Source: a phage
Length of the DNA: 64,000 nt
Assembly: GCA_024686575.1 (NCBI GenBank)
Contig: GCA_024686575.1_4863.1
Reading direction: 5' to 3' (one strand)
The stretch's first letter is position 1; every line of letters begins with the position of its first letter. The translations under genes and the position numbers were made by a program. Positions 2,529 to 59,728 of this stretch are shown here, in pieces. The notes beneath the pieces were generated by a model that saw nothing but the letters and a program-made list of their open reading frames with translations, was not told where the DNA came from and searched no databases.

Positions 2529-4829
2529 TTAGCCGCCAGCGCCTTCACCGCCAGTACCTGGCTGGGTAGCACCGCCGCCAACATCACCAGCATTACCACC
2601 GTCAGTACCGCCGGTACCGTTGGAAGTAGTAGTGACGTTGAACGCCAGTTTCTCTTCCACGAACTTGGTGATACCTTTAATCCAGATCAGACCAGTGATC
2701 GGGCAGTGGCAGATGTGCGCGTTACGAGGCTGTACTGCCAGCTCTTTGCTGGTAGCGCCGTTACGCTGGATGTTGATGTTGGTTACCATGATCGGAGACC
2801 AGAAGTGGTTACCCCAGTTCAGAACACAGTAAGAACCATCATCAGCGGTTGGAACTTTCAGAACCCACTGCAGGCGGCGAGTCCAGCTGCCGTCAGCTTC
2901 GTTCTTCACACGCCAGCGGTCATCGTTGGTGGTGATAACTTCGTACTCGTAGCGATCGCCCAGCAGACGCTGGTCACCCTGAACCAGCAGCAGCATTGCA
3001 GCAGTCGGTTCGTCAGTTGCGATAACAACTTTCGGCAGTGCGTTCGGGTCCGCAGTCAGCAGGCGCAGAGCCGGCATGAAGCGAGAGTCCTGGATAGCAC
3101 GAGTTACCTGGTCACCGATACGCTGTACCAGACCCTGACGGGCGTTGATGAGCGCATCTTTGGTATCCAGAGACTGGATCACTTTGTCCACTTCGTAGTC
3201 GCTTTCGCTGTACCACGGAGCAACCCAGTGACGGCCCAGGCCGCGGATAGCAGGTTTGTCCCACGGAGTGATCATGGACGCAGCTGCGTTCTTAACCGCT
3301 TCGGTGTAAGACAGAGTCTGAGTGATAGCCAGCATTTCGTTACGGATGTTAACCGCAGAAACGAGGTCGTCCAGACGTTCGGTGTCGTCGTATTCAACGC
3401 CAACCGGAGATTTGGTCATGATCGGAGAACCGTACTGCAGTTTGTAGTTCTCTTGTTCCCAAATCGGGTCGAGCAGAAGGCCCTGGGTTCTCCGGTTCTC
3501 GTTGGTACGAGTACCGTCGAAGCGCCAGCCCAGCAGCTCCAGTTTCAGGTTGTCGATGATGACTTTGCCGGTGCCGCTTTCGATATCAACAGCAGTACCA
3601 GTTGCGTCGTACAGACCTTCGATTTCCAGAGACGGTGCAGTCACGTCAACACGACCAGAGAACTGACCATTGGTGAACAGAGACATGCTGATGTTCATGG
3701 AATAACGAATGGTGTAATCGTTCTGTGCCAGAGCGGCCAGTGCCGGGATTTCAGCACCTTTCCAGTCCAGAGACTTGGCGTTCAGGGAGAACACAGTGCG
3801 ACGGAACTGCAGGACCAGCTCACGGCCATCACCTTCAGGAGGACGCTGGAAGGTAGCGAACTGCATGTCGCGTACGTTCAGTTTGATCAGCGCACCATCT
3901 TTCGCTTCTTCGGCCGGCTTACGCACAGACAGCAGCAGGCTACCCAGCGCTGCACCCGGTGCGATTTCGTCGGTTTCATCGTAACCTTCCTGCACGATAC
4001 CCGGATGGGCAGACAGCTGGAACAGGTTCAGACGACGCTCAGAGAAGCTCAGGTAGTTGGTCGGATACGCCGGCACACGACCCAGCTGAACGTTTTCGTT
4101 TTCGATGATGTCTTCGGATACGAAGAACTTCGCGTTCTCACCGGTTTCCATCACGTAAGGTACGATACGGATAGCATCGTCCTGCAGGACTTTGTGGTTA
4201 GACAGCGCGTTATGCAGCGGCTGACGGTTGTCTTCAACCACGTCTTTGGTCAGCAGGGCGTTCAGGATACCACGAGTTACAGTAGTAACTTTGGTACGAA
4301 CGGTGATCCCGACGTCGTTGGTGTCCACAGTGATGGTCGGGAACAGGGTTTCTGCAAACTTGGATTGAGTTTCCAGAGCACGCACGTTCAGCGTCCAGGT
4401 CAGACCCAGGTTTTTGTCCAGGTCTTTGTTGGTGTAGTATTCGGTTGCGACCAGCGGAGTTTTACCGTAGTCAGCAGCCAGGGATGCTGCACCAGAAATA
4501 GCGATCGGCATATAGCTGGCGTATTCCGGCTTCGCGCTCTCAGCAGCAACACGGGTCATGAAGTCATCTTCGTGACCGGCAGCAGCCAGAATCATCGCAG
4601 AAGCAACCTGAGCAGCGTGGCTCATGGTTTTGCCAGGGTTTACAGCTTCGTAGTGCTGCTGAGCAGTGTCACGCAGGTTGGTGAAGCCGGCAGCATTTTT
4701 ACGTACAGATTCGCCAACGGCTACGGTTTGCCATACGTCATTAGCGGAAGAGCCTGCCTTGGCAGCAGCGACCAGAGCATTGCCCTGCTGAACCAGCTGG
4801 TCCAGACTAGCGATACGGGTATCTTTCAT
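2529..4829 (-). CDS. large virion structural protein candidate (possibly major capsid protein)
   Basis: 766-aa ORF with ATG start, followed by a strong rho-independent terminator; size matches the roughly 750-aa major capsid proteins of phiKZ-like phages; Gly-rich C-terminal tail. Function inferred from size and context only. Confidence 0.55.
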   Translation of the reverse strand: MKDTRIASLDQLVQQGNALVAAAKAGSSANDVWQTVAVGESVRKNAAGFTNLRDTAQQHYEAVNPGKTMSHAAQVASAMILAAAGHEDDFMTRVAAESAKPEYASYMPIAISGAASLAADYGKTPLVATEYYTNKDLDKNLGLTWTLNVRALETQSKFAETLFPTITVDTNDVGITVRTKVTTVTRGILNALLTKDVVEDNRQPLHNALSNHKVLQDDAIRIVPYVMETGENAKFFVSEDIIENENVQLGRVPAYPTNYLSFSERRLNLFQLSAHPGIVQEGYDETDEIAPGAALGSLLLSVRKPAEEAKDGALIKLNVRDMQFATFQRPPEGDGRELVLQFRRTVFSLNAKSLDWKGAEIPALAALAQNDYTIRYSMNISMSLFTNGQFSGRVDVTAPSLEIEGLYDATGTAVDIESGTGKVIIDNLKLELLGWRFDGTRTNENRRTQGLLLDPIWEQENYKLQYGSPIMTKSPVGVEYDDTERLDDLVSAVNIRNEMLAITQTLSYTEAVKNAAASMITPWDKPAIRGLGRHWVAPWYSESDYEVDKVIQSLDTKDALINARQGLVQRIGDQVTRAIQDSRFMPALRLLTADPNALPKVVIATDEPTAAMLLLVQGDQRLLGDRYEYEVITTNDDRWRVKNEADGSWTRRLQWVLKVPTADDGSYCVLNWGNHFWSPIMVTNINIQRNGATSKELAVQPRNAHICHCPITGLIWIKGITKFVEEKLAFNVTTTSNGTGGTDGGNAGDVGGGATQPGTGGEGAGG

Positions 4830-43854: not shown

Positions 43855-46091
43855 TATTTATCCTCCCGAATTGGACGCACTAATTCAAAACCTTCACAGC
43901 GATGGATGTTACGTATCATCCTGTCAATCTGCGAATCACCCATTGGCAGTTTCTTACGATCGACCAGCACCCCTGGATTGGTTGGTGTTGGCGAGTTATA
44001 CAGCCCCGTTACGATCGCACGGTGTACCGCAGGGTTATTAGCGCGGTCATGAGTTTCGGGGAAGTTGCCCGGACCAAAGCCGTCGGTAAGACGCTGCTCG
44101 GAAGGACCACCCCACTTCAACCCTTTCAGGTTAATCGGATATGAACCACGTCCTTGGTTGGATGCATCAATACAACCCAAATAGTTCGTGTACATCGACG
44201 AGATACTGGAGAACTCACGACCGGTTTTATCCAGGCGCAGAGTCTCTACCATGCCGACGTAAAACTGGTTCTTCGTCCACTCTTTCTCACCCTGATAGTT
44301 AGTAATCAGTAGCTTAGACTTGCGTGGTGCATACTCGCCTAGAGCACGGCAGATTTCTACCTGGGTAGCATTCAATTCGTGGGGAAGCCAGATACGAATC
44401 GTGAAGTCGTAAATCTCTTTAAAGAGTTCCAGACGTGACCCAGTATCCGGGTGACTGGCATTGAGATAGAATGTCCAGCGTGGGTTATAGCGATCGATAT
44501 AGTCCATCAGGATTTCCCAGGCTTCATCAACCTGGTTGGCGGCAAGTAAAGGTTTCAACCGCATCTTCAACTGCTCGGATGCAGCAGACCAATACATGTG
44601 GAACAGCGCAGCATAAGTCGAACGACGAATTACGGCGTTCATGGAACGAATGACATGCACACGTTCTCCGAACTCGTTAATCGGCATTTCTTCATCAGGC
44701 CGCACTGCGCCCACGATACCTTTTGTACCTGAACGGTCGGTGATTTTCGATGAGACGGTAACTGGGATTGGATAACGTACCACGATGCGTATCGTGTAAC
44801 TACCAATTGGGTCCCAGAGACCACGCTGAACCGGCTGCGCCAGTTTGTTTAACACGTTCTTATCAGCAGAACGGTTATACTCGCCTTTACGCATGGCTTC
44901 ATCGTATTCACGACCAATCTCTTCACGGAAGTCGTTATAGACTTCATACGTCTCAGAACAGAACGCCTTGTCAAGAATCTCAAACGCTTTCGGTGACCAG
45001 ACGATATTCTTGTCCTTGGACATCGCAAAATAGAACCGTACGATATCATTGTAAAAACGTTTCAAAGCGTTCGCGTAGTGATCTAACTCGCGTTTGTTCT
45101 CTTCGGTACATGCGATATTGTTAACACCACGATCGCATTTGGTTTCGTCCCGCCATACCTGAATATCAACGACACGAGAACCGGTACGTTCCATCTTTTC
45201 AAAGTCGCCAGCCAGTCGCGCTTTGTAATGCTCAGGGTCGGCATCAACATACTCACAACGGTCGAAGTGCGGAGAGACATGTTGTGTTTCACCTACGTGC
45301 GAGTCAATGGCTGCCCATAGCTTATCGAAACGGCGCGCGGCAATAACCAACCCATCATCACGAATTGCCTGTCCTTTATTGGGCAGGTACTGTGGTCGAC
45401 GAACGCCATCAATACCCGTTGTCCCATACGTATCAAGCAGGTACTCGTCGTCGCGCAAGGTAAAGTCGATTGCACGCAAACCATAAGCGTGCATCGCTTT
45501 CGCTGCAGTTTCGGAGATGGTGTACGAGTCCTCGATAATGTCCGGGTGCGACATCGTCACGGTGTGCAGGTTGACCCCATCGACAAACTCACCGTCTTTC
45601 TGTGCCGGCAGCACGGTAAGCATTTCATCTTTTTCCAGGTGCTGCGTCTGCCCGCGCAGCAACGCCTGAAGTTTCCCAGTAGCCTCTTTCTTAGACGAGA
45701 AAATGTTATCGTGGTTGGTGTAATACTTAATATCGATTACATCAATCATCACTTTGCGCTGGTTGGTTAAATCTGCGCGCGTGAAGAAGATAACATGTTG
45801 GAGCGGTTCGTGATCCCCTTCACGACCATAGCGTGCAAAAACAGCTGCACGAGTAACACCTTCTTTGGTTGTGTAACTGCACACGGTACCACTGTCTTCC
45901 ACGATATCGTTAAAACAATAATCGTGGTAGTTCACATCAGCGCCGGTAAAATGGATAGTCGGATCTGGATTGTCCAGTGGTACCGCCGACTTCATATGTC
46001 CACCCACCATTGAGGCACGTGCCCCAGATACGCCAGTGATATTCACCTCACGGTCAGCAACGCTTGACATGAGTTCGACTGGTGTTTTCAT
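43854..46091 (-). CDS. multisubunit RNA polymerase beta-like subunit, C-terminal part
   Basis: 745 aa; DRSGTKGIVGAVRPDEEMP resembles the beta GRHGNKGVVSKI..EDMP segment, with a downstream YVGMVETLRLDK (compare YMYMLKLNHLVDDK); AAAGGAG RBS; 15-mer motif 31 nt upstream. Confidence 0.7.
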   Translation of the reverse strand: MKTPVELMSSVADREVNITGVSGARASMVGGHMKSAVPLDNPDPTIHFTGADVNYHDYCFNDIVEDSGTVCSYTTKEGVTRAAVFARYGREGDHEPLQHVIFFTRADLTNQRKVMIDVIDIKYYTNHDNIFSSKKEATGKLQALLRGQTQHLEKDEMLTVLPAQKDGEFVDGVNLHTVTMSHPDIIEDSYTISETAAKAMHAYGLRAIDFTLRDDEYLLDTYGTTGIDGVRRPQYLPNKGQAIRDDGLVIAARRFDKLWAAIDSHVGETQHVSPHFDRCEYVDADPEHYKARLAGDFEKMERTGSRVVDIQVWRDETKCDRGVNNIACTEENKRELDHYANALKRFYNDIVRFYFAMSKDKNIVWSPKAFEILDKAFCSETYEVYNDFREEIGREYDEAMRKGEYNRSADKNVLNKLAQPVQRGLWDPIGSYTIRIVVRYPIPVTVSSKITDRSGTKGIVGAVRPDEEMPINEFGERVHVIRSMNAVIRRSTYAALFHMYWSAASEQLKMRLKPLLAANQVDEAWEILMDYIDRYNPRWTFYLNASHPDTGSRLELFKEIYDFTIRIWLPHELNATQVEICRALGEYAPRKSKLLITNYQGEKEWTKNQFYVGMVETLRLDKTGREFSSISSMYTNYLGCIDASNQGRGSYPINLKGLKWGGPSEQRLTDGFGPGNFPETHDRANNPAVHRAIVTGLYNSPTPTNPGVLVDRKKLPMGDSQIDRMIRNIHRCEGFELVRPIREDK

Positions 46092-46121
46092 TCGTAAATG
46101 CTCCTTTTGGTTACCTCGGTA

Positions 46122-46136
46122 AGATAATATCTATCT
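46122..46136 (-). promoter_or_regulatory. conserved 15-mer AGATAATATCTATCT, copy 3
   Basis: Exact 15-mer 31 nt upstream of the RNAP beta-like gene start (46091), in the divergent region shared with the + gene at 46158. Confidence 0.55.
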
Positions 46137-46157
46137 GTTTTATTTTAAGGAGAGACG

Positions 46158-46481
46158 ATGCTAGATAAATTTGCTACCTTATCCGAAATAATACCTTCGC
46201 CTGATTCGACCAAGTATAAGGTGTTGCATGACTATACAGACTTCCTTCGCAAACACCCAGATACTACAGAAGAAGTTGTTGACCCAAAATATGCCTACCC
46301 AGAGGTACACAGTTTCTACGCGTACTGTCGTCTCAAACAGTACGATAATAGTATTATTTATCCGATGATGTTAATGAACGGAATTTCTACTCCGTTCGAT
46401 TTCACGCCAGAGATAAGAACCTTATTGGTTCCTAGTGTCGGTGTGGTAAGTAACATCTTATCGACTATCGTAGAATCTTGA
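46158..46481 (+). CDS. hypothetical protein
   Basis: 107-aa ORF, ATG with AAGGAG RBS; bidirectional terminator downstream. Confidence 0.5.
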   Translation: MLDKFATLSEIIPSPDSTKYKVLHDYTDFLRKHPDTTEEVVDPKYAYPEVHSFYAYCRLKQYDNSIIYPMMLMNGISTPFDFTPEIRTLLVPSVGVVSNILSTIVES

Positions 46482-46512
46482 AAAAAAGAAGGGACGCCCA
46501 GTCCCTTCTTTC
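46479..46512. terminator. bidirectional rho-independent terminator
   Basis: Hairpin GAAGGGAC-GCCCA-GTCCCTTC flanked by an A-run and a T-rich tract, between convergent genes. Confidence 0.65.
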
Positions 46513-46518
46513 TAACGC

Positions 46519-47886
46519 TTAACGTAAATTAGCTGATGAGAATGGTAGGTTGCCTAAACTGCTGCTACTTCCGCCACCTAAACCACCCAGACCACCTAAC
46601 ACGTCACTACTCCCTCCTAAGAGGTTGGTGCTACCGCCGCCCAACTGCGTGCTACCCCCCAAGAGATTATTACTACTTCCCAGCAAACCAGAACCCAGAC
46701 CACTTTCTTTCGTCACCGCATTACCACGCAGCGCTTCACCGAGAGACAGTTCTTTAATTGTCCCTTTCGGTAAATGGCCGTTGTTCTCACGCAGCGCTTC
46801 CTGAATCTTCGGTGCTAACGCATTGAAGCTATTAGCCGAAGACGCCTGTTGCGCTTTCTTCGCACGGAAATAGTTTACCGGATCATTGAGATCAAGATTT
46901 TCCTGCGGAGCTTGTTGAGAAGCTAAAGCAACGACCGGCTTTGTGCCGGCAGGTGTACGCCCGATACGGAAATCTGTTGCGGTGGTGTCTGTTGCCTGAT
47001 CGTTACGTGGGCCGGTATTATACGGCAGAGTTTGGATAACGTTATCATAAACGCTCATGTTATCCAGTTGGCCAATCCATTCTTCTTCTAACGGACGCAG
47101 TGGAGTGTGGTCACGCAGACCACGAACCACTTGATTGTAGTTGGTCACGTATTGTGCCCAACCGCGTGCCAAAGAACCGAAGTACGGACGCGGATCGTTA
47201 GAACCAGTAACCGAAGGATACCAACCAAACACTGCAGTTAGCAGGTTAAAGATAATGACCTTATCCTGCTTACGCTGGAGCTTGGCACCGAAGAATGTTG
47301 CCGTACCATCCAGTGACTCTTCTTCAAACATGTGTTTGTAGTTCGCCACGCGGATATATTTGATACCCTCAATGGTCATATCGCTGGAGATGAAGATACT
47401 GGTGATCTTTGTCTTTTTATCTTCTTCCAGCAAACCGTAAACATAGTTCTTCACCGCTTGCCAGCTCTGAACCAGTTTCTTATCCATCGTCGGATCTTTC
47501 AGGTCAGCACAAACCACATCGCTTAAAAACTTCTTGTAAGCTGCCAGACGGATATTCTTTCCTTCGGCTGCTGTTTCCAAAATAGCATCGATTAGCTCGA
47601 AGCTTTTCAGGAAGAGGTTCGCGTTGATGGCTTTCTTCAGGAAGCGAATCGTTCCAGATTCGCCAGCCAGTACCGATTCACACAGTGGGTGGAACGCATG
47701 ACACTCACTACCTTCATCGTCTTCCAACCCACGCTTAATCATCGCTGCAGTTGGAAGCACCAAGCGGCGCTTCACTTTGTTGTAGGTGAACATTGCTGGA
47801 TGACCATCATCGATAGTCAGCATGTCACCTTCGAATCCGTATCCGAGAGAGGTCAGAAACGAACGGTAGAATTCAATCAATTTCAT
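46519..47886 (-). CDS. hypothetical protein with Gly/Ser/Leu-rich C-terminal tail
   Basis: 455 aa; C-terminal 60 aa is a low-complexity repeat LLGGSTQLGGGSTNLLGGSSDVLGGLGGLGGGSSSS. Confidence 0.55.
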   Translation of the reverse strand: MKLIEFYRSFLTSLGYGFEGDMLTIDDGHPAMFTYNKVKRRLVLPTAAMIKRGLEDDEGSECHAFHPLCESVLAGESGTIRFLKKAINANLFLKSFELIDAILETAAEGKNIRLAAYKKFLSDVVCADLKDPTMDKKLVQSWQAVKNYVYGLLEEDKKTKITSIFISSDMTIEGIKYIRVANYKHMFEEESLDGTATFFGAKLQRKQDKVIIFNLLTAVFGWYPSVTGSNDPRPYFGSLARGWAQYVTNYNQVVRGLRDHTPLRPLEEEWIGQLDNMSVYDNVIQTLPYNTGPRNDQATDTTATDFRIGRTPAGTKPVVALASQQAPQENLDLNDPVNYFRAKKAQQASSANSFNALAPKIQEALRENNGHLPKGTIKELSLGEALRGNAVTKESGLGSGLLGSSNNLLGGSTQLGGGSTNLLGGSSDVLGGLGGLGGGSSSSLGNLPFSSANLR

Positions 47887-47898
47887 GGTTAATAATCC

Positions 47899-49599
47899 TT
47901 AATCAATGAGACCGTTGCCGAGTCCGTTTCCGCCTATACCGCCTAAGCCACCACCCAGGTCAAGACCTCCAAGAGGATCTAAGCCACCTGTGTTAGTTGG
48001 AATGTTAGATAGCATTCGACCCCGGCCTTGGCCTTTCTCGAATTCTGTATAACCTTCTTCCACGGCTTTCAGCAGCGTTGCAGTGTTCTGTGCCAGCTCA
48101 CCAACGTATTTGAGATCGGTGGTGTTGCCGGTATGGAGACGGAATTGCATAAACGACGCGTAGGTGTAATATTCCAGCGGTTCGTCGTCGACACGGATTT
48201 CAATACGAGTAACGGTCCCCAACAATGCGGTGACCAGCATGTGACAGCGAATATGGTTATGTTTAGTAACCTGAACCATCGCTTCTTTCATGTTCTGCAA
48301 GAAACGACGACCTAATGCAGCAGGTAACTGATGATGTGTGATGCTGCTGACTGAGTTAGGAATAACTTCCAACGTAGGCTCTATCATGATATCCGTGTTA
48401 CGGTTATCAAAGACAAAGCTCACTTCGCCAATCAGGTTACGTGACATAATCGGCCCGATAGACATAGCCAGATCATACGCAACTAGACTACCCTGAGTAG
48501 AAAAGCCGTTACGTCCAATCCAGTGGTCGGTTTGGTTAACCAGCCCTGCACCCAACCCACGGCGACTTGCCAGCGCCAGCGATTCACGGATACATTCATC
48601 CAACCGCATTGGGTTGACAATCGCATTACGCAAATCAGCCAAACGGAACGTCGCCTTACTGGTTGCTTTCCAACCGCCAGATACATCAGACATCCCGTTC
48701 TGGAGTGCTTGACGCATCGCAGCAATCAGTTCGTGGTTGCTGTAGTTACGGATAACACCACGCTGCTTCAATTCAGATTCAACGCCGATGGAGTTATTAC
48801 CTGCAAAGAAGCTTTCCACGCTACCGAGTTCGGTATCTACCCCAGAGCTTGCCAGATACGCATTACTGATTGCAGATACGTAGTTTTCCGGACGCTGGAG
48901 TTGGGATACCATCAACTGTGGTGCAGAGCTACTGGTTGCGGATAGCACAGAGTCGCTCGTTGGAACGAACTTCTCACCGCTATTCATTTCAATACGTTTT
49001 ACCATATCCGCTGCTTTCGCGATCGAAATGATATCTACCGTACTTTCTGTTTGACCTTCAACAGACAGCGCTTTCGATAAAACGTAGTTATCCAGTAGAC
49101 GGAATGAGTCTGGGTTCAATGTTTTGCCGCCCAGGGCATCGTGTGTATACGTTGCCTGTAAGCCGTAGATGTCGTTAATGTACAACACCATATCGTCCGG
49201 CAGCAGGCTACCCAGGCTGGTTTCTGCCTGACTGGTATAACCGGAGACGATGTATTGCGTTTCCTGAGTGCGTGTTGCATTCAGAGGTTTAGCAATAAAC
49301 ACCGCCACGAAGTTAAAGATACCGGTATCACGTGATTCCCATTGGAACTGTACAGGACGATTGTCATCATCGGACACGTTGATGAATGGACGCTCAAAAC
49401 CGTTCTGGGTGCCATCGAAGCCCACGATGGCAGATAATGCTTCTTGATACTGCTGTGTTCCCACAGCTTTTTCCCCGCCCAGTTCAACCGCTGCTGCTAA
49501 GTCATCCAGTGCACCCGTCGATGCGTTAAAGCCGATGCGGCGACGAACTTGCTCTGGAACATCGTAGACCGGATACATCAGTAGATTTACAAGCTGCAT
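47899..49599 (-). CDS. hypothetical protein with Gly/Leu-rich C-terminal tail
   Basis: 566 aa; C-terminus GGLDPLGGLDLGGGLGGIGGNGLGNGLID. Confidence 0.55.
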   Translation of the reverse strand: MQLVNLLMYPVYDVPEQVRRRIGFNASTGALDDLAAAVELGGEKAVGTQQYQEALSAIVGFDGTQNGFERPFINVSDDDNRPVQFQWESRDTGIFNFVAVFIAKPLNATRTQETQYIVSGYTSQAETSLGSLLPDDMVLYINDIYGLQATYTHDALGGKTLNPDSFRLLDNYVLSKALSVEGQTESTVDIISIAKAADMVKRIEMNSGEKFVPTSDSVLSATSSSAPQLMVSQLQRPENYVSAISNAYLASSGVDTELGSVESFFAGNNSIGVESELKQRGVIRNYSNHELIAAMRQALQNGMSDVSGGWKATSKATFRLADLRNAIVNPMRLDECIRESLALASRRGLGAGLVNQTDHWIGRNGFSTQGSLVAYDLAMSIGPIMSRNLIGEVSFVFDNRNTDIMIEPTLEVIPNSVSSITHHQLPAALGRRFLQNMKEAMVQVTKHNHIRCHMLVTALLGTVTRIEIRVDDEPLEYYTYASFMQFRLHTGNTTDLKYVGELAQNTATLLKAVEEGYTEFEKGQGRGRMLSNIPTNTGGLDPLGGLDLGGGLGGIGGNGLGNGLID

Positions 49600-49611
49600 T
49601 TTAAATACTCC

Positions 49612-51246
49612 TTAAGAATTAAACCATTCAACTTCTTCTAACTTGCGACGTGCATTCAACACCATAAACTCCGCCAGGCTATTGTGCAGTGACAAGTGAG
49701 GTATATAGTTTGGCTGATCCGTCTCACACTTCAGCAGCGCAGCTGCTTCTGGTGTAGCCCTGAGATGGAACAGATACGGGTTGATGTGATCCTTGTGTAA
49801 CAAGGTCAGTGATTCCCGTGGTGTAGATTGCGGTTCGAGATTACGCGGGTTGCGATACTCCTGAAGATAATATCTATCTAAATCTGCTTTGAGTTCAGAT
49901 CGAATTGGGTCGGCTGCATAACCGGCAGACATCTCAGAACGCACCATATTGCAACTTAACAGTTGCGCAACGTCATACATTCCATAATTGAGATAAGTTG
50001 CCTGTGCTAACGCCATGCCGTAGCGAAACGCTTCTGGTCCACATTCGGTATACGTCTTATAATGCGCGCTACGATGGAGTGCTAATGCGACTAACCATTC
50101 GTGGAGCGTATAGACAGGACCGTCGTGTGTTGCCAGTTGCGAATCAATCAATAACTTAACATCTGCTGGAGCGGCATTATCCAGGCGCATTGTTTTCAAG
50201 AAAGAGCGGTATTCTTTAAATACGTACTCGGTACGGACGTATTCTTTCATCTGGGCAGGAGAACGTGCCTGCACCAAATCCATGGCGTTTATCTTACCCT
50301 TTTCGCCATTGAATATCACACTTTCTGGATGCGCTTTTAACAGCACCGGCTGGTTAGAGATTTTGTTTGCAAAACCTGTTTCAATCTCTTGTTTAACCAG
50401 AAAATACATGCCGGTGACGATATTGTTGTTAACCATGATTTCAACCGGTAATTCACCACCGACTTCACGGACAGCCAACAATTTAATAATAGCATACGCC
50501 AGGATATAATCTTCCATCATATCCGTGCCATAGCCCCGCACAGTAGCCAGTACCGACAAACTGGTGCTGTTCGTACCTTTGTTTGCCAGTTCTTTTTCTA
50601 CCTTTTCCATCACTGTCTGTAGGAACCCACGCAGTTTCGGAATAGCAGGTAAAGACATGACTTCTGTGTCTTGAAGCATCTCCAGACAGTATGTCAGATT
50701 GTACACCATTTTCCGATGTGTTTCGATTGGCAAGTTCTTACCTATCGGGAACGTCCCCATGGTGAGGAACACCGGAATATACGGTTTAATCATCAGGACC
50801 AGTATCAACAACTCGTAATAGTCCGGACGAATGTACGTCATCGCTTCCGGATAATTACTGTTCATTTCATCGTGCGTATCTTCCATGTTCTGCGGAATCC
50901 ACAGCTTATCGATGGGATACAGCTTACGATACACTTCGGCCTTGTGGAACTTCGCAATCGTCTGCACAATCTTCGGCATGTGCTTACGCTGCGTTTCCGT
51001 CGATTCGTTTGCCAGCTCGTCCAGCATCAGATACGCCATGAACAGTTCATCTTGTTCGTCTGGCGTTAAATAATCCCACACGCGTTGTAATTCCATGAAG
51101 AGAATGTTGTCGCGTGCAATCTGTTTACCTTTAACAGTGATGTAGTCGGGTGCGTTGTTATCCTTCCGATAACGTAAGCCAATAAATGAGACCTCTTGAC
51201 CATGATGCTCGATTGTCATCCGGTCTTTAATCTTCGTAATTTTCAT
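49612..51246 (-). CDS. hypothetical protein
   Basis: 544 aa, ATG with GGAG RBS; 15-mer motif 35 nt upstream; a second copy of the motif lies inside the 3' part of this ORF. Confidence 0.55.
   Translation of the reverse strand: MKITKIKDRMTIEHHGQEVSFIGLRYRKDNNAPDYITVKGKQIARDNILFMELQRVWDYLTPDEQDELFMAYLMLDELANESTETQRKHMPKIVQTIAKFHKAEVYRKLYPIDKLWIPQNMEDTHDEMNSNYPEAMTYIRPDYYELLILVLMIKPYIPVFLTMGTFPIGKNLPIETHRKMVYNLTYCLEMLQDTEVMSLPAIPKLRGFLQTVMEKVEKELANKGTNSTSLSVLATVRGYGTDMMEDYILAYAIIKLLAVREVGGELPVEIMVNNNIVTGMYFLVKQEIETGFANKISNQPVLLKAHPESVIFNGEKGKINAMDLVQARSPAQMKEYVRTEYVFKEYRSFLKTMRLDNAAPADVKLLIDSQLATHDGPVYTLHEWLVALALHRSAHYKTYTECGPEAFRYGMALAQATYLNYGMYDVAQLLSCNMVRSEMSAGYAADPIRSELKADLDRYYLQEYRNPRNLEPQSTPRESLTLLHKDHINPYLFHLRATPEAAALLKCETDQPNYIPHLSLHNSLAEFMVLNARRKLEEVEWFNS
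49865..49879 (-). promoter_or_regulatory. conserved 15-mer AGATAATATCTATCT, copy 4 (inside a coding region)
   Basis: Exact 15-mer embedded in the 3' part of CDS 49612..51246, 266 nt upstream of the next gene start (49599). Confidence 0.4.
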
Positions 51247-51280
51247 TATAGTTGAACTCCGCGAATAGTCGATTGCACTG

Positions 51281-51295
51281 AGATAATATCTATCT
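51281..51295 (-). promoter_or_regulatory. conserved 15-mer AGATAATATCTATCT, copy 5
   Basis: Exact 15-mer 35 nt upstream of the start at 51246. Confidence 0.55.
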
Positions 51296-51381
51296 CAATC
51301 TTCTTACAGTGTGTGTTGCAGGACCACGCATAAGCGTTAATAGCCCAAGGTCTCCCTTGGGCGTATTTTTTATTTTGTTTC

Positions 51382-52038
51382 TTAGAGGAATTCGTCGTAA
51401 GAATCAGTGGTTGCTGGAGGTGCAGATTGTTGCTGTTGATAACCGCCGCCGCTGCGCTGACCACCACCCTGGCCACCGCCGTATCCGCCACGACCGAAGC
51501 TACCACCACCTTGCTGGAATTCACGCGGCTTATATTTCTCTTCCAGGTTCTGTAAGAACTTCTCGAAGTTAGTGATAAACGCACGTGCACAGCGCTCAGC
51601 AAGTTCTAAATCAGAAACCTGCTGGCCATCGCGGAAAATACGGAATCCTTTCGGGTAGGAGAAGTAGAACTTCTTCTGGCGGGCACCAACGCCCTGGATT
51701 TCACCGGCAATAGCGATGAACGGTACCAGGTTGTCTTCACGGCCAACAATCAGACTAACGGGCGGTTTGTTGCCGTTTTCGTTAGTAAACTTCAGCATAC
51801 TCTTTTCGCTCTTACGCAGACAATCCTGCAGAGCTTCGATAATGGTACGGCAAACCGTAATCGGTGCAGAGAAATAGAGACCTTCGCCCTTACCAAAAGA
51901 GTAGCTAAACTTCATAGTTTCAACATCACCGTTGAAATCATTCGGTTCAATGTTGAGTTTACGCGTACGGTTTTGCTGATCCGGTTCGGTCTGCGGGTAA
52001 AGCCATTTGTCTTTGAAAATTTCTTGGTTAATCATCAT
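51382..52038 (-). CDS. SSB-like protein (Gly/Gln-rich linker plus acidic C-terminal tip)
   Basis: Internal start MMINQ with AAGGA RBS. C-terminus GGGSFGRGGYGGGQGGGQRSGGGYQQQQSAPPATTDSYDEFL resembles the bacterial SSB Gly/Gln linker and acidic tip (…DFDDDIPF); the N-terminal domain was not recognised. Confidence 0.4.
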   Translation of the reverse strand: MMINQEIFKDKWLYPQTEPDQQNRTRKLNIEPNDFNGDVETMKFSYSFGKGEGLYFSAPITVCRTIIEALQDCLRKSEKSMLKFTNENGNKPPVSLIVGREDNLVPFIAIAGEIQGVGARQKKFYFSYPKGFRIFRDGQQVSDLELAERCARAFITNFEKFLQNLEEKYKPREFQQGGGSFGRGGYGGGQGGGQRSGGGYQQQQSAPPATTDSYDEFL

Positions 52039-52103
52039 TTCATCCTTTTCGGAAAAGCGGTCTAGTGGTTCACACATGATGTCCCACTAACGTAAATTTT
52101 AAC

Positions 52104-52940
52104 TTACTTCATAAGCCTGCGGAGCAGTTCAATTACAAATGGCTCATTCACCAGTTTTAGACAGTTATAAATACGGTCCATTGTGGTATCCTGTTTCCAG
52201 CTGTACTTCTCTGCGGTTTTTAACACCACCCCACGCGTTTTGCGATCGAGGGGTGAAAACATTATCCCGTCGCCAAACAACGTCAGGAACGCTTTGTTAA
52301 ACGGAATATGTTGGGGTTTCCCGTTAAGTTTGGTGTACCACTCCAGTTGCGTTTTCACTTTACCGGTATGTGATTCCAACAAACCCAGTTTAGGGAAATC
52401 TTTACGTGCCAGGAGATCAGCTGGCATGTGGGTCAGTAACAGTGTGTCGCGGCTACCCTCTGGGAAAACATCGAATTGACGGAAGTCATTTTCGTGTTTC
52501 TCACCGTACATCTTTAAAGTGTCGTGTTCCAGTGCATTATAGTGCAGCTGGTTTGGCGTCATCTTATCCTGACCGCCTGCAATGTTTTTGAACGAGGCTT
52601 CGGGAAACACTTTGTTAGCGCTACGATAGCTACAAAGGTACGGAACGCATAACACCGAAGGGGCTACCGCTCTCGCGGTAGCCGTAAGATTATTAATATC
52701 TTCTTCAATCGATGTTAGCATCACGTCGGGTGTTAACCGTTCTCTATTCTCTTCAAACGCATAGAAGGCGTTACGGAACAATGTCCGGAGATTCAGGTAT
52801 ATTTCCTGATAGGAATGGATAGGCAATTCGCCTTTCCAGTCGGCGTATTCGCCGGTATGCAGCAGACCTTCAAACGCCAGCGAACTGGCGATTGACACTG
52901 AATAGAACCCGAAAGTGCGATCAACACTGATTGGATTCAT
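52104..52940 (-). CDS. hypothetical protein
   Basis: 278-aa ORF overlapping the upstream gene by 4 nt. Confidence 0.5.
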   Translation of the reverse strand: MNPISVDRTFGFYSVSIASSLAFEGLLHTGEYADWKGELPIHSYQEIYLNLRTLFRNAFYAFEENRERLTPDVMLTSIEEDINNLTATARAVAPSVLCVPYLCSYRSANKVFPEASFKNIAGGQDKMTPNQLHYNALEHDTLKMYGEKHENDFRQFDVFPEGSRDTLLLTHMPADLLARKDFPKLGLLESHTGKVKTQLEWYTKLNGKPQHIPFNKAFLTLFGDGIMFSPLDRKTRGVVLKTAEKYSWKQDTTMDRIYNCLKLVNEPFVIELLRRLMK

Positions 52941-57874: not shown

Positions 57875-59728
57875 TTACAGTTTGAAGTTGCTCAGAGACA
57901 CGCCCAGACCGAAATCGGAACCGCTTGCAGACAGGCCGTTGCCAGACAGCGTGAAGTCTTCCCCACCGTTGTTGAAGAACAGGGAGGTCGCCATCGTGTT
58001 GTAGGCATTTACACCAGTCATAGACCAGGTGCAGTTGTTACGGACGAAGTCCAGCAGGCATTTACCGAAGATCGGGTTGATAGCCATATCCAGAGATTCA
58101 CCGGTAGCTTGCGGTGCTTTGGATGCGAACAGAGAAGCGGCCAGTTTCAGCATGTAGATACGCTGCTGACGCTCGTTCAGTTCACGGTGGCTGTAGGACT
58201 GTGCGTTCAGGTAGCTATAGACGTCGTTCGCGTTATCACCCAGTTTGGTAACAACGGAAATCAGGTCCATATCCTGGAAGCTGCGTTTCTGTGCAGTACC
58301 GGTGTAAACACCGGAAACAGTCGGTACGGCTGCTTTCACGATGTGGCTGCAATGGATGGTACCATTGAAGGCATCGCCCAGCTGTGCTTTCAGTGCAGAA
58401 GCAAATACTGCAGTGAAGCTGGTCGCTGCAACAACTTCGCCGTTCTGATCACGCGGGGACATGGAATTCAGAATAGCGAGCAGCTGTTTCAGAGAGTTGT
58501 CGTAACCGACCGCAATTTCAGACAGCATAGTAGACAGACCACCCAGGCCGTTACCGGCACGATGGCTAACTACCAGTGCTGCTTCACGCGGTGCGAACAT
58601 ATCCAGGCAACCTTCGATAGCTTCACGGCTACCGTCGATTTTGGATACATCAGGACGAGCGTCAGCACCCCAGGACAGGTATTCTGCCACACGGGAGAAC
58701 TTGCGATCTTGTTTGTTCAGGCGTTTCACAAACAGGTCACGCCAGCCACCGATTGCCGCGATTTCTGCAAATGCAGCCAGCAGCAGCAGTTGACGTTCAT
58801 ACGGTGCCATTGCACCTTCAGTTTGAGAATCGACCAGACTTACTACGATTTCAGCCTGCAGCTGTTTCAGGTCGTAGACGCCGTTAACGACAGGCTTCTG
58901 ACCGGTGAAACGCATATTGACGAAACCGGTACCGGATACACGCGGATACACCTGTACCTGATTGGTGTCCAGCAGAGTCGGAGTGGCATCGGTTACGTTG
59001 CTTGGGCTGTGCTCAACGGTGATTGCGAAATCAGCACGTTGTGCGTGGCCGTTAGCATCCACAACCGCGCCATCTTCCAGCGGCATTACTGAGGCCTGAT
59101 AACGGTCATGCTTACGCAGGTTCAGTGTACCCAGGTAGCCTGCGATACGACCGAAGATTCCCATCATCATCTGACCCATCAGGGTACGTGCCCACTCAGC
59201 ATCCAGAACTTTACCCAAGTCTGGTACGGAGTTGATGATCATGAAGTTCGCATTGGTCAGACCATGCGCTTCCATGATGTTTTTCTGTACTACTGCCAGC
59301 ACGTCTTTGTTGAACAGTTCAGTGATGGTGTAGTAGTCTTCCTGGCCGTTGTTGGTGGTTTCTTTCAGACGCAGAGACTGACCGCGTTCAAAGAAGATAA
59401 TACCGTACAGCCAGTGGCCCTGCCATTGGCCTGCGACGTACGCCGCGGAACCCATTTCGTTACCCACGCCGACGATGGTGCCCCAGCGGAATGCGTTGAG
59501 GTATTCGTTGCTTTTCTTCAGCTCATCCAGGAGGTTGGTGAAGTGCATTGCATAAGTGCTGATGTTGCGGATGCCAAATGCGTTATCGAATTGGCTGACA
59601 GTAGAAGTACCCGGCACAGCAGTTTGCACTTTTACAGTCTCGTTGCCCAGACCGCCCAGTGGTGCGGTGTCTTGAGTCTGAGTGTTGTTCTGCTGAGCGT
59701 TGTTGTTAGAGTCAACGATTTTTACCAT
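57875..59728 (-). CDS. abundant-protein candidate (nuclear-shell-like or major structural protein); function unassigned
   Basis: 617 aa; ATG with AAGGA RBS; two copies of the 15-mer motif upstream (59774-59788, 59868-59882) and a terminator-like hairpin downstream; Gly/Ser-rich C-terminus. Confidence 0.6.
   Translation of the reverse strand: MVKIVDSNNNAQQNNTQTQDTAPLGGLGNETVKVQTAVPGTSTVSQFDNAFGIRNISTYAMHFTNLLDELKKSNEYLNAFRWGTIVGVGNEMGSAAYVAGQWQGHWLYGIIFFERGQSLRLKETTNNGQEDYYTITELFNKDVLAVVQKNIMEAHGLTNANFMIINSVPDLGKVLDAEWARTLMGQMMMGIFGRIAGYLGTLNLRKHDRYQASVMPLEDGAVVDANGHAQRADFAITVEHSPSNVTDATPTLLDTNQVQVYPRVSGTGFVNMRFTGQKPVVNGVYDLKQLQAEIVVSLVDSQTEGAMAPYERQLLLLAAFAEIAAIGGWRDLFVKRLNKQDRKFSRVAEYLSWGADARPDVSKIDGSREAIEGCLDMFAPREAALVVSHRAGNGLGGLSTMLSEIAVGYDNSLKQLLAILNSMSPRDQNGEVVAATSFTAVFASALKAQLGDAFNGTIHCSHIVKAAVPTVSGVYTGTAQKRSFQDMDLISVVTKLGDNANDVYSYLNAQSYSHRELNERQQRIYMLKLAASLFASKAPQATGESLDMAINPIFGKCLLDFVRNNCTWSMTGVNAYNTMATSLFFNNGGEDFTLSGNGLSASGSDFGLGVSLSNFKL

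Follow-up and report, generated by a model that had tools for sequence, protein, structure and literature searches.

Glycine-rich tails end several large proteins of a single phage, and the question is whether such tails serve a common purpose. They lie in a 64,000-nucleotide stretch of phage DNA (GenBank assembly GCA_024686575.1, contig GCA_024686575.1_4863.1; hereafter the window), on four open reading frames (ORFs): gp32 (46519..47886), gp31 (47899..49599) and gp29 (51382..52077), named after their counterparts in Salmonella phage SPN3US, and the major capsid protein (MCP; 2529..4829). A preliminary description of the window had taken them for one recurring type of flexible tail on unrelated proteins, with a shared interaction or targeting role. 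We find that the four tails form three classes, gp31 with gp32 (class A), gp29 (class B) and the MCP (class C), and that across phages the composition of the class A tails co-varies with that of the C-terminal tail of chimallin (ChmA). The proposition that the gp31 and gp32 tails tie both of these shell-associated factors to the chimallin lattice, their chemistry being replaced jointly, is in our estimate evenly balanced between right and wrong.

The glycine-rich tails and the proteins that carry them

All four ORFs are present on the minus strand at these coordinates and end in the glycine-rich sequences that had been quoted for them. The highest glycine content per 30 residues is 14 in gp32, 14 in gp31, 15 in the MCP and 15 in gp29. 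These maxima were never matched in 20,000 shuffles per protein, the other 49 of the 53 non-overlapping ORFs of the window contain at most 8 glycines per 30 residues, and all four enriched stretches are C-terminal. These counts confirm that the four proteins carry glycine-rich C-terminal tails. The preliminary description had also called the tails flexible and proposed disorder prediction as a check. AlphaFold2, run with family alignments, gave a predicted local distance difference test (pLDDT) score below 50 for residues 387-455 of gp32 and 532-566 of gp31, whereas residues 1-287 of gp32 and 1-531 of gp31 were folded with confidence; the low scores beside confident bodies are consistent with flexible tails on gp31 and gp32. 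The DNA encoding the tails contains no significant tandem repeats, only marginal arrays of 9 nt x 2.6, so recent DNA slippage was rejected as the origin of the tails.

On sequence grounds, the window is an SPN3US-like chimallivirus, i.e. a nucleus-forming jumbo phage of the phiKZ-like group. Its region 46000-52200 is 99% identical in DNA to SPN3US and relatives, and the tailed ORFs correspond to the SPN3US gp29 to gp32 block plus the MCP. The 566-residue gp31 matched phrog_3141 (E 6.6e-157), the PHROG to which phiKZ gp69 also belongs (E 2.7e-179), and is assigned by this match to the PicA/Imp1 family (phiKZ gp69, PhiPA3 gp63). [quoted passage not shown] The 455-residue gp32 matched phrog_3520 (E 3.7e-135; blastp 3e-12), which it shares with phiKZ gp70 (E 4.1e-122), and is by the same kind of evidence a member of the shell-associated phiKZ gp70 / PhiPA3 gp64 family. 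Foldseek found no match to the gp31 fold in the PDB with E < 0.6, profile searches against PDB sequences found no solved relatives of the globular domains of gp31 and gp32, and gp29, gp31 and gp32 had no Pfam match.

The gp31 tail (47902..48006, minus strand; residues 532-566, NIPTNTGGLDPLGGLDLGGGLGGIGGNGLGNGLID) directly follows a clade-conserved 'SNIPT' motif and contains 14 glycines and 7 leucines, with 3 of its 35 residues charged. The gp32 tail (46522..46728, minus strand; residues 387-455, RGNAVTKESGLGSGLLGSSNNLLGGSTQLGGGSTNLLGGSSDVLGGLGGLGGGSSSSLGNLPFSSANLR) contains 20 glycines, 14 serines and 14 leucines; 5 of its 69 residues are charged, and its Leu-Gly 'stickers' are set in an almost uncharged spacer of Gly, Ser, Asn and Thr. 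In gp32, the globular domain (1-287) is followed by a long C-terminal region predicted to be disordered. The roughly 100 residues between domain and tail (288-386) are mostly of low confidence, with a moderately confident helical stretch at 336-367, and a conserved 'SL..A.GG' motif lies directly before the glycine-rich tail.

The window also encodes a 617-residue chimallin (57875..59728, minus strand) in the divergent form of the SPN3US clade. It had no direct match to Pfam PF25677 or phrog_4795, and its own PHROG is annotated 'unknown function'. Profile-profile alignment with hhalign matched it to the phiKZ-type chimallins, the family of phiKZ gp54 and 201phi2-1 gp105 (98.8% probability, E 8.7e-17, 463 columns; residues 62-571 to phiKZ 64-576). 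This match identifies it as chimallin, in line with the diverged chimallin described for SPN3US (Laughlin 2022, PMC9365700). The aligned globular part stops at about residue 573. The remaining 44 residues (574-617; 57878-58009, minus strand; NAYNTMATSLFFNNGGEDFTLSGNGLSASGSDFGLGVSLSNFKL) form a tail rich in Gly, Ser, Asn, Leu and Phe, which by position corresponds to the lattice-forming C-terminal segments CTS1/CTS2 of 201phi2-1 chimallin. Chimallin lattices are held together by exchanged flexible tails, and the C-terminal segments mediate lattice contacts (PMC9365700).

Tail chemistry of chimallin, Imp1 and the gp70 family across phages

Besides the window, the locus was taken from 19 named phages, 19 IMG/VR contigs and one metagenomic contig from Logan, and further homologues came from large protein collections. 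All gp70-family members inspected, from 20 phages, had a low-complexity tail of 60-80 residues. The representative library contained 481 relatives of the gp70 family at E <= 1e-3. Among 144 family representatives, grouped at 50% identity, median entropy was 3.27 bits over the last 60 residues and 3.86 bits over a body window, and entropy fell below 3.3 bits in 76 of the 144 tails versus none of the 144 body windows. By composition, 67 of the 144 tails are rich in Gln, Pro, Asn or Met and 27 are of mixed charge; clear FG, LFG, MFG, NPF or WG repeats occur in P0117, P0120-P0123 and P0134. From the 20 loci and the 144 representatives, we propose a long low-complexity C-terminal tail as a feature of the gp70 family.

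What the tail is made of differs between lineages. Leu-Gly motifs within Gly, Ser and Asn characterize SPN3US, Erskinevirus, Machinavirus and Wellingtonvirus, and NPF repeats are found in Derbicus and Phobos, Phe-Gly repeats in metagenomic relatives, Met/Gln/Pro tails in phiKZ, PhiPA3 and Ea35-70, Gln/Pro/Tyr tails in BONAISHI, pEa_SNUABM_54 and 201phi2-1, a Trp-Gly tail in FLC9, an RGG tail in LucasX, and tails of mixed charge built on Arg and Asp in Moabite, RSL2, Xoo-sp14 and pVa-21. Imp1 tails of 30-45 residues follow SNIPT in the SPN3US/Erwinia clade, are of the Gln/Asn/Pro type in the phiKZ group and of the Arg/Asp type in Xoo-sp14 and pVa-21. Only one clade shows the glycine-richness of gp31 and gp32, and these fast-evolving tail sequences cannot be aligned between genera. 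The preliminary description had made its case depend on the tails being present and conserved in orthologues. This proved true of the presence of a low-complexity tail, which is constant in the gp70 family and in the gp29 (ChmC) family and found in most Imp1 lineages, but not of the glycine-richness of gp31 and gp32.

Two oddities were noticed among the public records of these families. In several SPFM Salmonella phage records (P0029-P0034, P0063, P0064, P0067, P0075, P0076 and P0112-P0115), the proteins look scrambled, with blocks permuted; one gp32-like protein, for example, carries an Imp1 tail, IGGNGLGNGLID, at its end. Errors of assembly or annotation in those records are the probable cause. 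In phage Churi (H93), one of two features under the phiKZ gp69 match, probably the adjacent homologue of gp70, bears the label 'Med15 subunit of mediator complex protein'.

The amino-acid composition of the C-terminal 40-60 residues was compared between proteins of the same phage and proteins of other phages, with one phage per lineage and 20,000 label permutations. The sample comprised 16-17 representative phages, and the permutation tests ignore phylogeny. Compositional similarity was higher within a phage than between phages for ChmA and Imp1 (0.64 versus 0.55), ChmA and gp70 (0.61 versus 0.47) and Imp1 and gp70 (0.56 versus 0.43), with p <= 5e-5 in each case. The ChmC tail showed no same-phage excess with any partner (p 0.56-0.78), nor did the ordinary C-termini of the gp68 and gp66 homologues, which were used as controls (p 0.05-0.28). 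The signal remained with 17 lineages, and also when the four Arg/Asp phages, or alternatively all phages of the SPN3US clade, were left out. Shared 3-mers agreed (ChmA-gp70, p = 5e-5; Imp1-gp70, p = 2e-4).

The Arg/Asp tails provide a natural set of contrasts. On a rough tree of gp68 and gp66 they occur in four separate lineages, each beside a lineage of another type, and in all four contrasts the charged fraction rises jointly in ChmA, Imp1 and gp70. The view that GC content or mutational bias sets the tail chemistry was not supported: GC ranges from 0.445 to 0.579 among the Arg/Asp phages, and ChmC and the controls do not co-vary. A similar joint change was seen at closer range. In a 56%-identical metagenomic relative, Phe replaces the Leu stickers in Imp1 (SFGSFGSFG..GVFGAFGE), in gp70 (FG repeats) and partly in ChmA. 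Across 11 clade lineages, the Phe share of the hydrophobic residues of Imp1 was correlated with that of ChmA (rho 0.71, p = 0.015) and with that of gp70 (rho 0.65, p = 0.03), and no correlation with ChmC was found.

The tails of Imp1/PicA or gp70, FG-like repeats and co-variation of tails are not discussed in the PicA paper, the Imp preprint or recent reviews; the final Nature version of the Imp study lay outside this survey. No work pairing chimallin with FG-repeat or low-complexity terms was found among the papers listed, and a search for phage nucleus with nucleoporin returned unrelated work only. The ChmC tail is already known, and for the Imp1 and gp70 tails, and for co-evolving shell tails, we found no earlier discussion in the literature searched.

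The gp29 and capsid tails and the conserved gene block

The gp29 protein matched phrog_3284 (E 6.4e-66), the PHROG of phiKZ gp67 (E 6.1e-80), and its gene lies directly upstream of that for the gp68-like non-virion RNA polymerase (nvRNAP) subunit. It is assigned on this basis to ChmC/Imp6 (phiKZ gp67, PhiPA3 gp61), a nucleus-associated protein that binds RNA and single-stranded DNA (ssDNA) as well as Imp1 (PMC11077065; bioRxiv 10.1101/2024.03.27.586873). ChmC is an oligomeric single-strand nucleic-acid binder with a Whirly fold that prefers RNA over ssDNA (PMC11077065), and deletion of the C-terminal Asn/Gly-rich disordered region of PhiPA3 ChmC abolishes RNA-protein condensates (Enustun et al. 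2024, PMC11077065). The tail of gp29 (51385..51516, minus strand; residues 188-231, QQGGGSFGRGGYGGGQGGGQRSGGGYQQQQSAPPATTDSYDEFL) contains 15 glycines and 8 glutamines and consists of a Gly/Gln linker, the motif QQSAPP and an acidic tip with a hydrophobic end, DSYDEFL. Like the tail of its PhiPA3 orthologue at the same locus, it runs from a Gly/Asn/Gln-rich stretch into an end rich in Ser, Asp and Glu; the SPN3US version, however, is Gly/Gln-rich and not Asn-rich. Every ChmC orthologue has such a stretch of 40-60 residues followed by an acidic tip that ends in a hydrophobic or aromatic residue (DSYDEFL, DEDMPSF, DFADDLPF, GDDDIPM, FDNDIPW and FDTDIPF among them). The tip rule holds for 20 of 20 ChmC orthologues versus 54 of 412 background ORFs.

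This layout resembles the C-terminus of the bacterial single-stranded DNA-binding protein (SSB), a disordered linker followed by the acidic tip ..DFDDDIPF; the window protein ends in ..GYQQQQSAPPATTDSYDEFL and E. coli SSB in ..RPQQSAPAAPSNEPPMDFDDDIPF, as checked against PDB sequences, and both proteins bind single strands. They differ in that the folded domain of ChmC is, according to the literature, Whirly and not OB, and in the preference of ChmC for RNA. Searches with gp29 gave no Pfam SSB or OB-fold match at E <= 0.01 and no PDB sequence match. The idea that gp29 is a T7 gp2.5-like or OB-fold SSB was dropped, and gp29 was not assigned to the SSB family, because the literature gives ChmC a Whirly fold; the likeness to SSB lies in the tail only. 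It is not mentioned in PMC11077065. The analogy suggests that the ChmC tip is a partner-binding peptide, for which Imp1 or host SSB-client proteins could be the partner, and the tail may be a mimic of host SSB or a partner-recruiting peptide. It thereby suggests how ChmC/Imp6, an abundant RNA/ssDNA binder, could recruit partners.

ChmC homologues carry the label 'glycine rich protein' in public records (201phi2-1, L017; PhiPA3, L016). Such labels in chimalliviruses, 'Med15-like' included, would be artefacts of low-complexity tails that we regard as functional.

Variable terminal extensions occur on phage major capsid proteins, and the MCP tail is like them in lying outside the conserved fold, in its simple composition and in its hypervariability between close relatives. 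The window MCP is of the phiKZ gp120 type and matches PF25620 over residues 72-725 (E 7.6e-226). The 36-residue tail (residues 731-766; 2532-2639, minus strand; NVTTTSNGTGGTDGGNAGDVGGGATQPGTGGEGAGG) is therefore outside the capsid domain. It is rich in Gly (15), Thr (7) and Ala and is without hydrophobic residues. Across the SPN3US/Erwinia clade it varies from Gly-rich to GT repeats, TAPATGS repeats, Pro/Thr-rich or acidic sequence, and direct reading of orthologue C-termini showed that it is absent from the capsid proteins of PhiPA3, Goslar and LucasX. The MCP tail is a clade-specific hypervariable extension unrelated to the other tails.

Three of the four glycine-tailed genes, gp29, gp31 and gp32, are neighbours in one conserved block. 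The 'unrelated proteins' of the preliminary description are unrelated in sequence, but three of the four adjoin in the genome. The order SbcD, gp66-like, gp67, gp68, gp69, gp70 and nvRNAP beta is the same in the window, in phiKZ and in about 20 other phages, so that the ChmC - nvRNAP subunit - Imp1 - gp70 - nvRNAP beta locus is kept in the window, whose genome also encodes chimallin. Nearly every gene of the window lies on the minus strand. Among the tailed genes stands gp30 (49612..51246, minus strand), which belongs to phrog_3209 together with phiKZ gp68, the nvRNAP subunit; it has no low-complexity tail and served as an internal control. In PhiPA3, gp61, gp63 and gp64 are three conserved proteins that localize to the nuclear shell (PMC10643120), and imp1 and imp6 of phiKZ were free of disruptive transposon insertions (PMC12676376). 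A small plus-strand ORF (46158-46481; SPN3US gp33, 107 residues) lies between the gp70-like gene and nvRNAP beta, a position kept in most loci. Its counterpart is labelled 'baseplate wedge protein' in phage Moabite and Proteus phage 7, on weak evidence.

A proposed role for the gp31 and gp32 tails and its parallels

Considering that the tails of gp31 and gp32 appear to co-evolve with that of chimallin and that both families are shell-associated, the most economical reading is that the two tails tie their proteins to the chimallin tail network. From sequence statistics together with published localisation and interaction data, we infer a physical contact, tail to tail or tail to lattice, with a part to play in transport or in association with the shell. 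Both tails, which are predicted to be disordered, are almost uncharged and carry Leu-Gly stickers, would act as cohesive or docking modules that hold Imp1 and the gp70-family protein in or on the lattice, through the C-terminal tail of chimallin or the binding sites of that tail. The contact would consist of many weak hydrophobic interactions, as in cohesive FG-type domains. A cohesive function of Leu-Gly tails is physically plausible, since selective phases of an FG-like kind can be obtained in vitro from Leu-only 'GLLG//L' repeats (Ng et al. 2023, PMC9918544). The type of chemistry behind the contact (Leu-Gly, Phe-Gly, NPF, Met/Gln, Trp-Gly, RGG or Arg/Asp) would have been swapped repeatedly, always jointly in the three partners; such concerted change would explain why glycine-richness varies by lineage but a tail as such is kept. 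For gp29, a separate and invariant tail would drive RNA-dependent condensation through the published region, with the tip as a peptide handle. The shared interaction or targeting role of the preliminary description thus fits gp31 and gp32, together with chimallin, in view of the co-variation and of the PhiPA3 homologues at the shell, but does not extend to gp29 or the MCP.

Several observations weigh against tying the two tails to the lattice. When the Arg/Asp phages and the SPN3US clade were both dropped, the eight phages that remained supported the ChmA-Imp1 pair only (p = 0.003), with p = 0.08 for ChmA-gp70 and p = 0.31 for Imp1-gp70. The independent changes of tail chemistry are few, about 4-6, and because of this and the neglect of phylogeny the nominal co-variation p-values overstate the evidence. 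Co-expression of Imp1 and gp70 in E. coli gave no co-precipitation (bioRxiv 10.1101/2024.03.27.586873); any tail-tail contact is therefore weak or chimallin-dependent. In Ea35-70, BONAISHI, Eowyn and pEa_SNUABM_54, Imp1 has a short tail or none, so that the tail is not essential to the core function of Imp1. On the physical side, the pLDDT below 50 of the gp31 and gp32 tails is a model score and only an indirect sign of disorder; GLLG repeats of the plain kind phase-separated only when the spacer contained additional Leu (PMC9918544); and the phage tails span 35-70 residues, not the hundreds of residues of nucleoporin FG domains.

Some of these points would be expected if the tails were passive spacers or solubility 'bristles' whose composition drifts with lineage bias, the co-variation being a by-product of genome background. 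The very fast, unalignable evolution of the tails, the loss of the Imp1 tail in some lineages and the weakening of the co-variation without the two dominant groups all fit such a view. Against it, neither the low-complexity ChmC tail, about 2 kb away in the same genomes, nor the control C-termini co-vary; the Arg/Asp-type phages span the wide range of GC content given above, and sister lineages bear opposite chemistries. The tail-coding DNA also lacks slippage-prone repeats, and a tail is kept in 144 of 144 gp70-family representatives. We therefore regard passive spacers as possible but doubtful. A stricter form of docking, in which the Imp1 and gp70 tails end in a CTS2-like copy, fill the pocket of a chimallin protomer and join the lattice as minor subunits, draws on the exchanged tails by which the lattice is held (PMC9365700) and on the ends of some proteins. 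The IMG/VR relative L039 has ..SSFNF in ChmA, ..DSFNF in Imp1 and ..GGFSF in gp70; L044 has ..HFTF, ..PFSF and ..NFTF, respectively; L041 has ..SFTL in ChmA and ..NFTL in Imp1; and PhiPA3 (L016) has ..DLGLL in Imp1 and ..GLGLL in gp70. These near-identical ends suggest a shared C-terminal docking motif in some phages. As a general rule, strict mimicry seems unlikely: similarity of the last 4-6 residues was not significant over 17 phages or over the 11 clade lineages (p 0.13-0.6), a result that also counts against the broader proposal, and the ends in the window differ (..SNFKL in ChmA, ..GNGLID in Imp1, ..SSANLR in gp70).

The view of the preliminary description, that all four glycine-rich tails are of one type and dock to one partner or follow one targeting route, has in its favour that all four are glycine-rich, C-terminal and predicted to be flexible, that three of the genes are adjacent, and that capsids also dock on the nuclear shell (PMC10643120). 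It did not hold up. The ChmC tail, with Gly/Gln and an acidic tip, is distinct, invariant across phages and without co-variation (p 0.56-0.78, as above); the MCP tail has no hydrophobic stickers, is hypervariable and is missing from three of the phages named above; and the glycine-richness of gp31 and gp32 itself is limited to one clade. A single tail type is accordingly highly improbable.

The passage of proteins through the closed chimallin shell is the main question for nucleus-forming phages, and PicA/Imp1 selects the cargo. Our finding points to short, deletable and swappable modules on Imp1, the gp70/gp64 family and chimallin that appear to co-evolve, and it makes the gp70-family protein a candidate component of the shell or of the transport machinery. 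One close precedent for the gp31 and gp32 tails is provided by the C-terminal segments of chimallin described in 2022 (PMC9365700). Both are flexible termini, and the composition of the gp31 and gp32 tails co-varies with that of the window chimallin tail. Unlike these segments, both tails belong to proteins other than chimallin and show more repetition, and identity of the terminal motif is confined to some lineages.

If the tails are cohesive, a striking functional parallel to eukaryotic nuclear pores would emerge. The gp31 and gp32 tails share with the Nup98 GLFG-type FG domains and with GLLG//L repeats the placement of hydrophobic motifs next to Gly, uncharged spacers of Gly, Ser, Asn, Gln and Thr, and disorder; as in nucleoporins, they are carried by proteins that border a DNA compartment with selective protein import. 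By analogy, the Imp1 and gp70-family tails meshed with chimallin tails might form a selective 'sticky' plug at import sites, comparable to the FG barrier, which licensed cargo would cross and whose chemistry would be replaced in concert in each lineage; we think such a plug decidedly unlikely, and it would be a convergent solution in a protein-walled viral nucleus. Phage tails and nucleoporins are not homologous. The window tails have Leu-Gly motifs and a single Phe in place of repeated Phe-Gly, and other lineages use Arg/Asp or Gln/Pro/Met. Disorder with depletion of charge characterizes the gp31 and gp32 tails (pLDDT below 50) and is lost in the Arg/Asp lineages. True FG, LFG, MFG and NPF repeats, the hallmark of the nucleoporin domains, do occur in orthologue tails (L024, P0040, P0117 and P0120-P0123).

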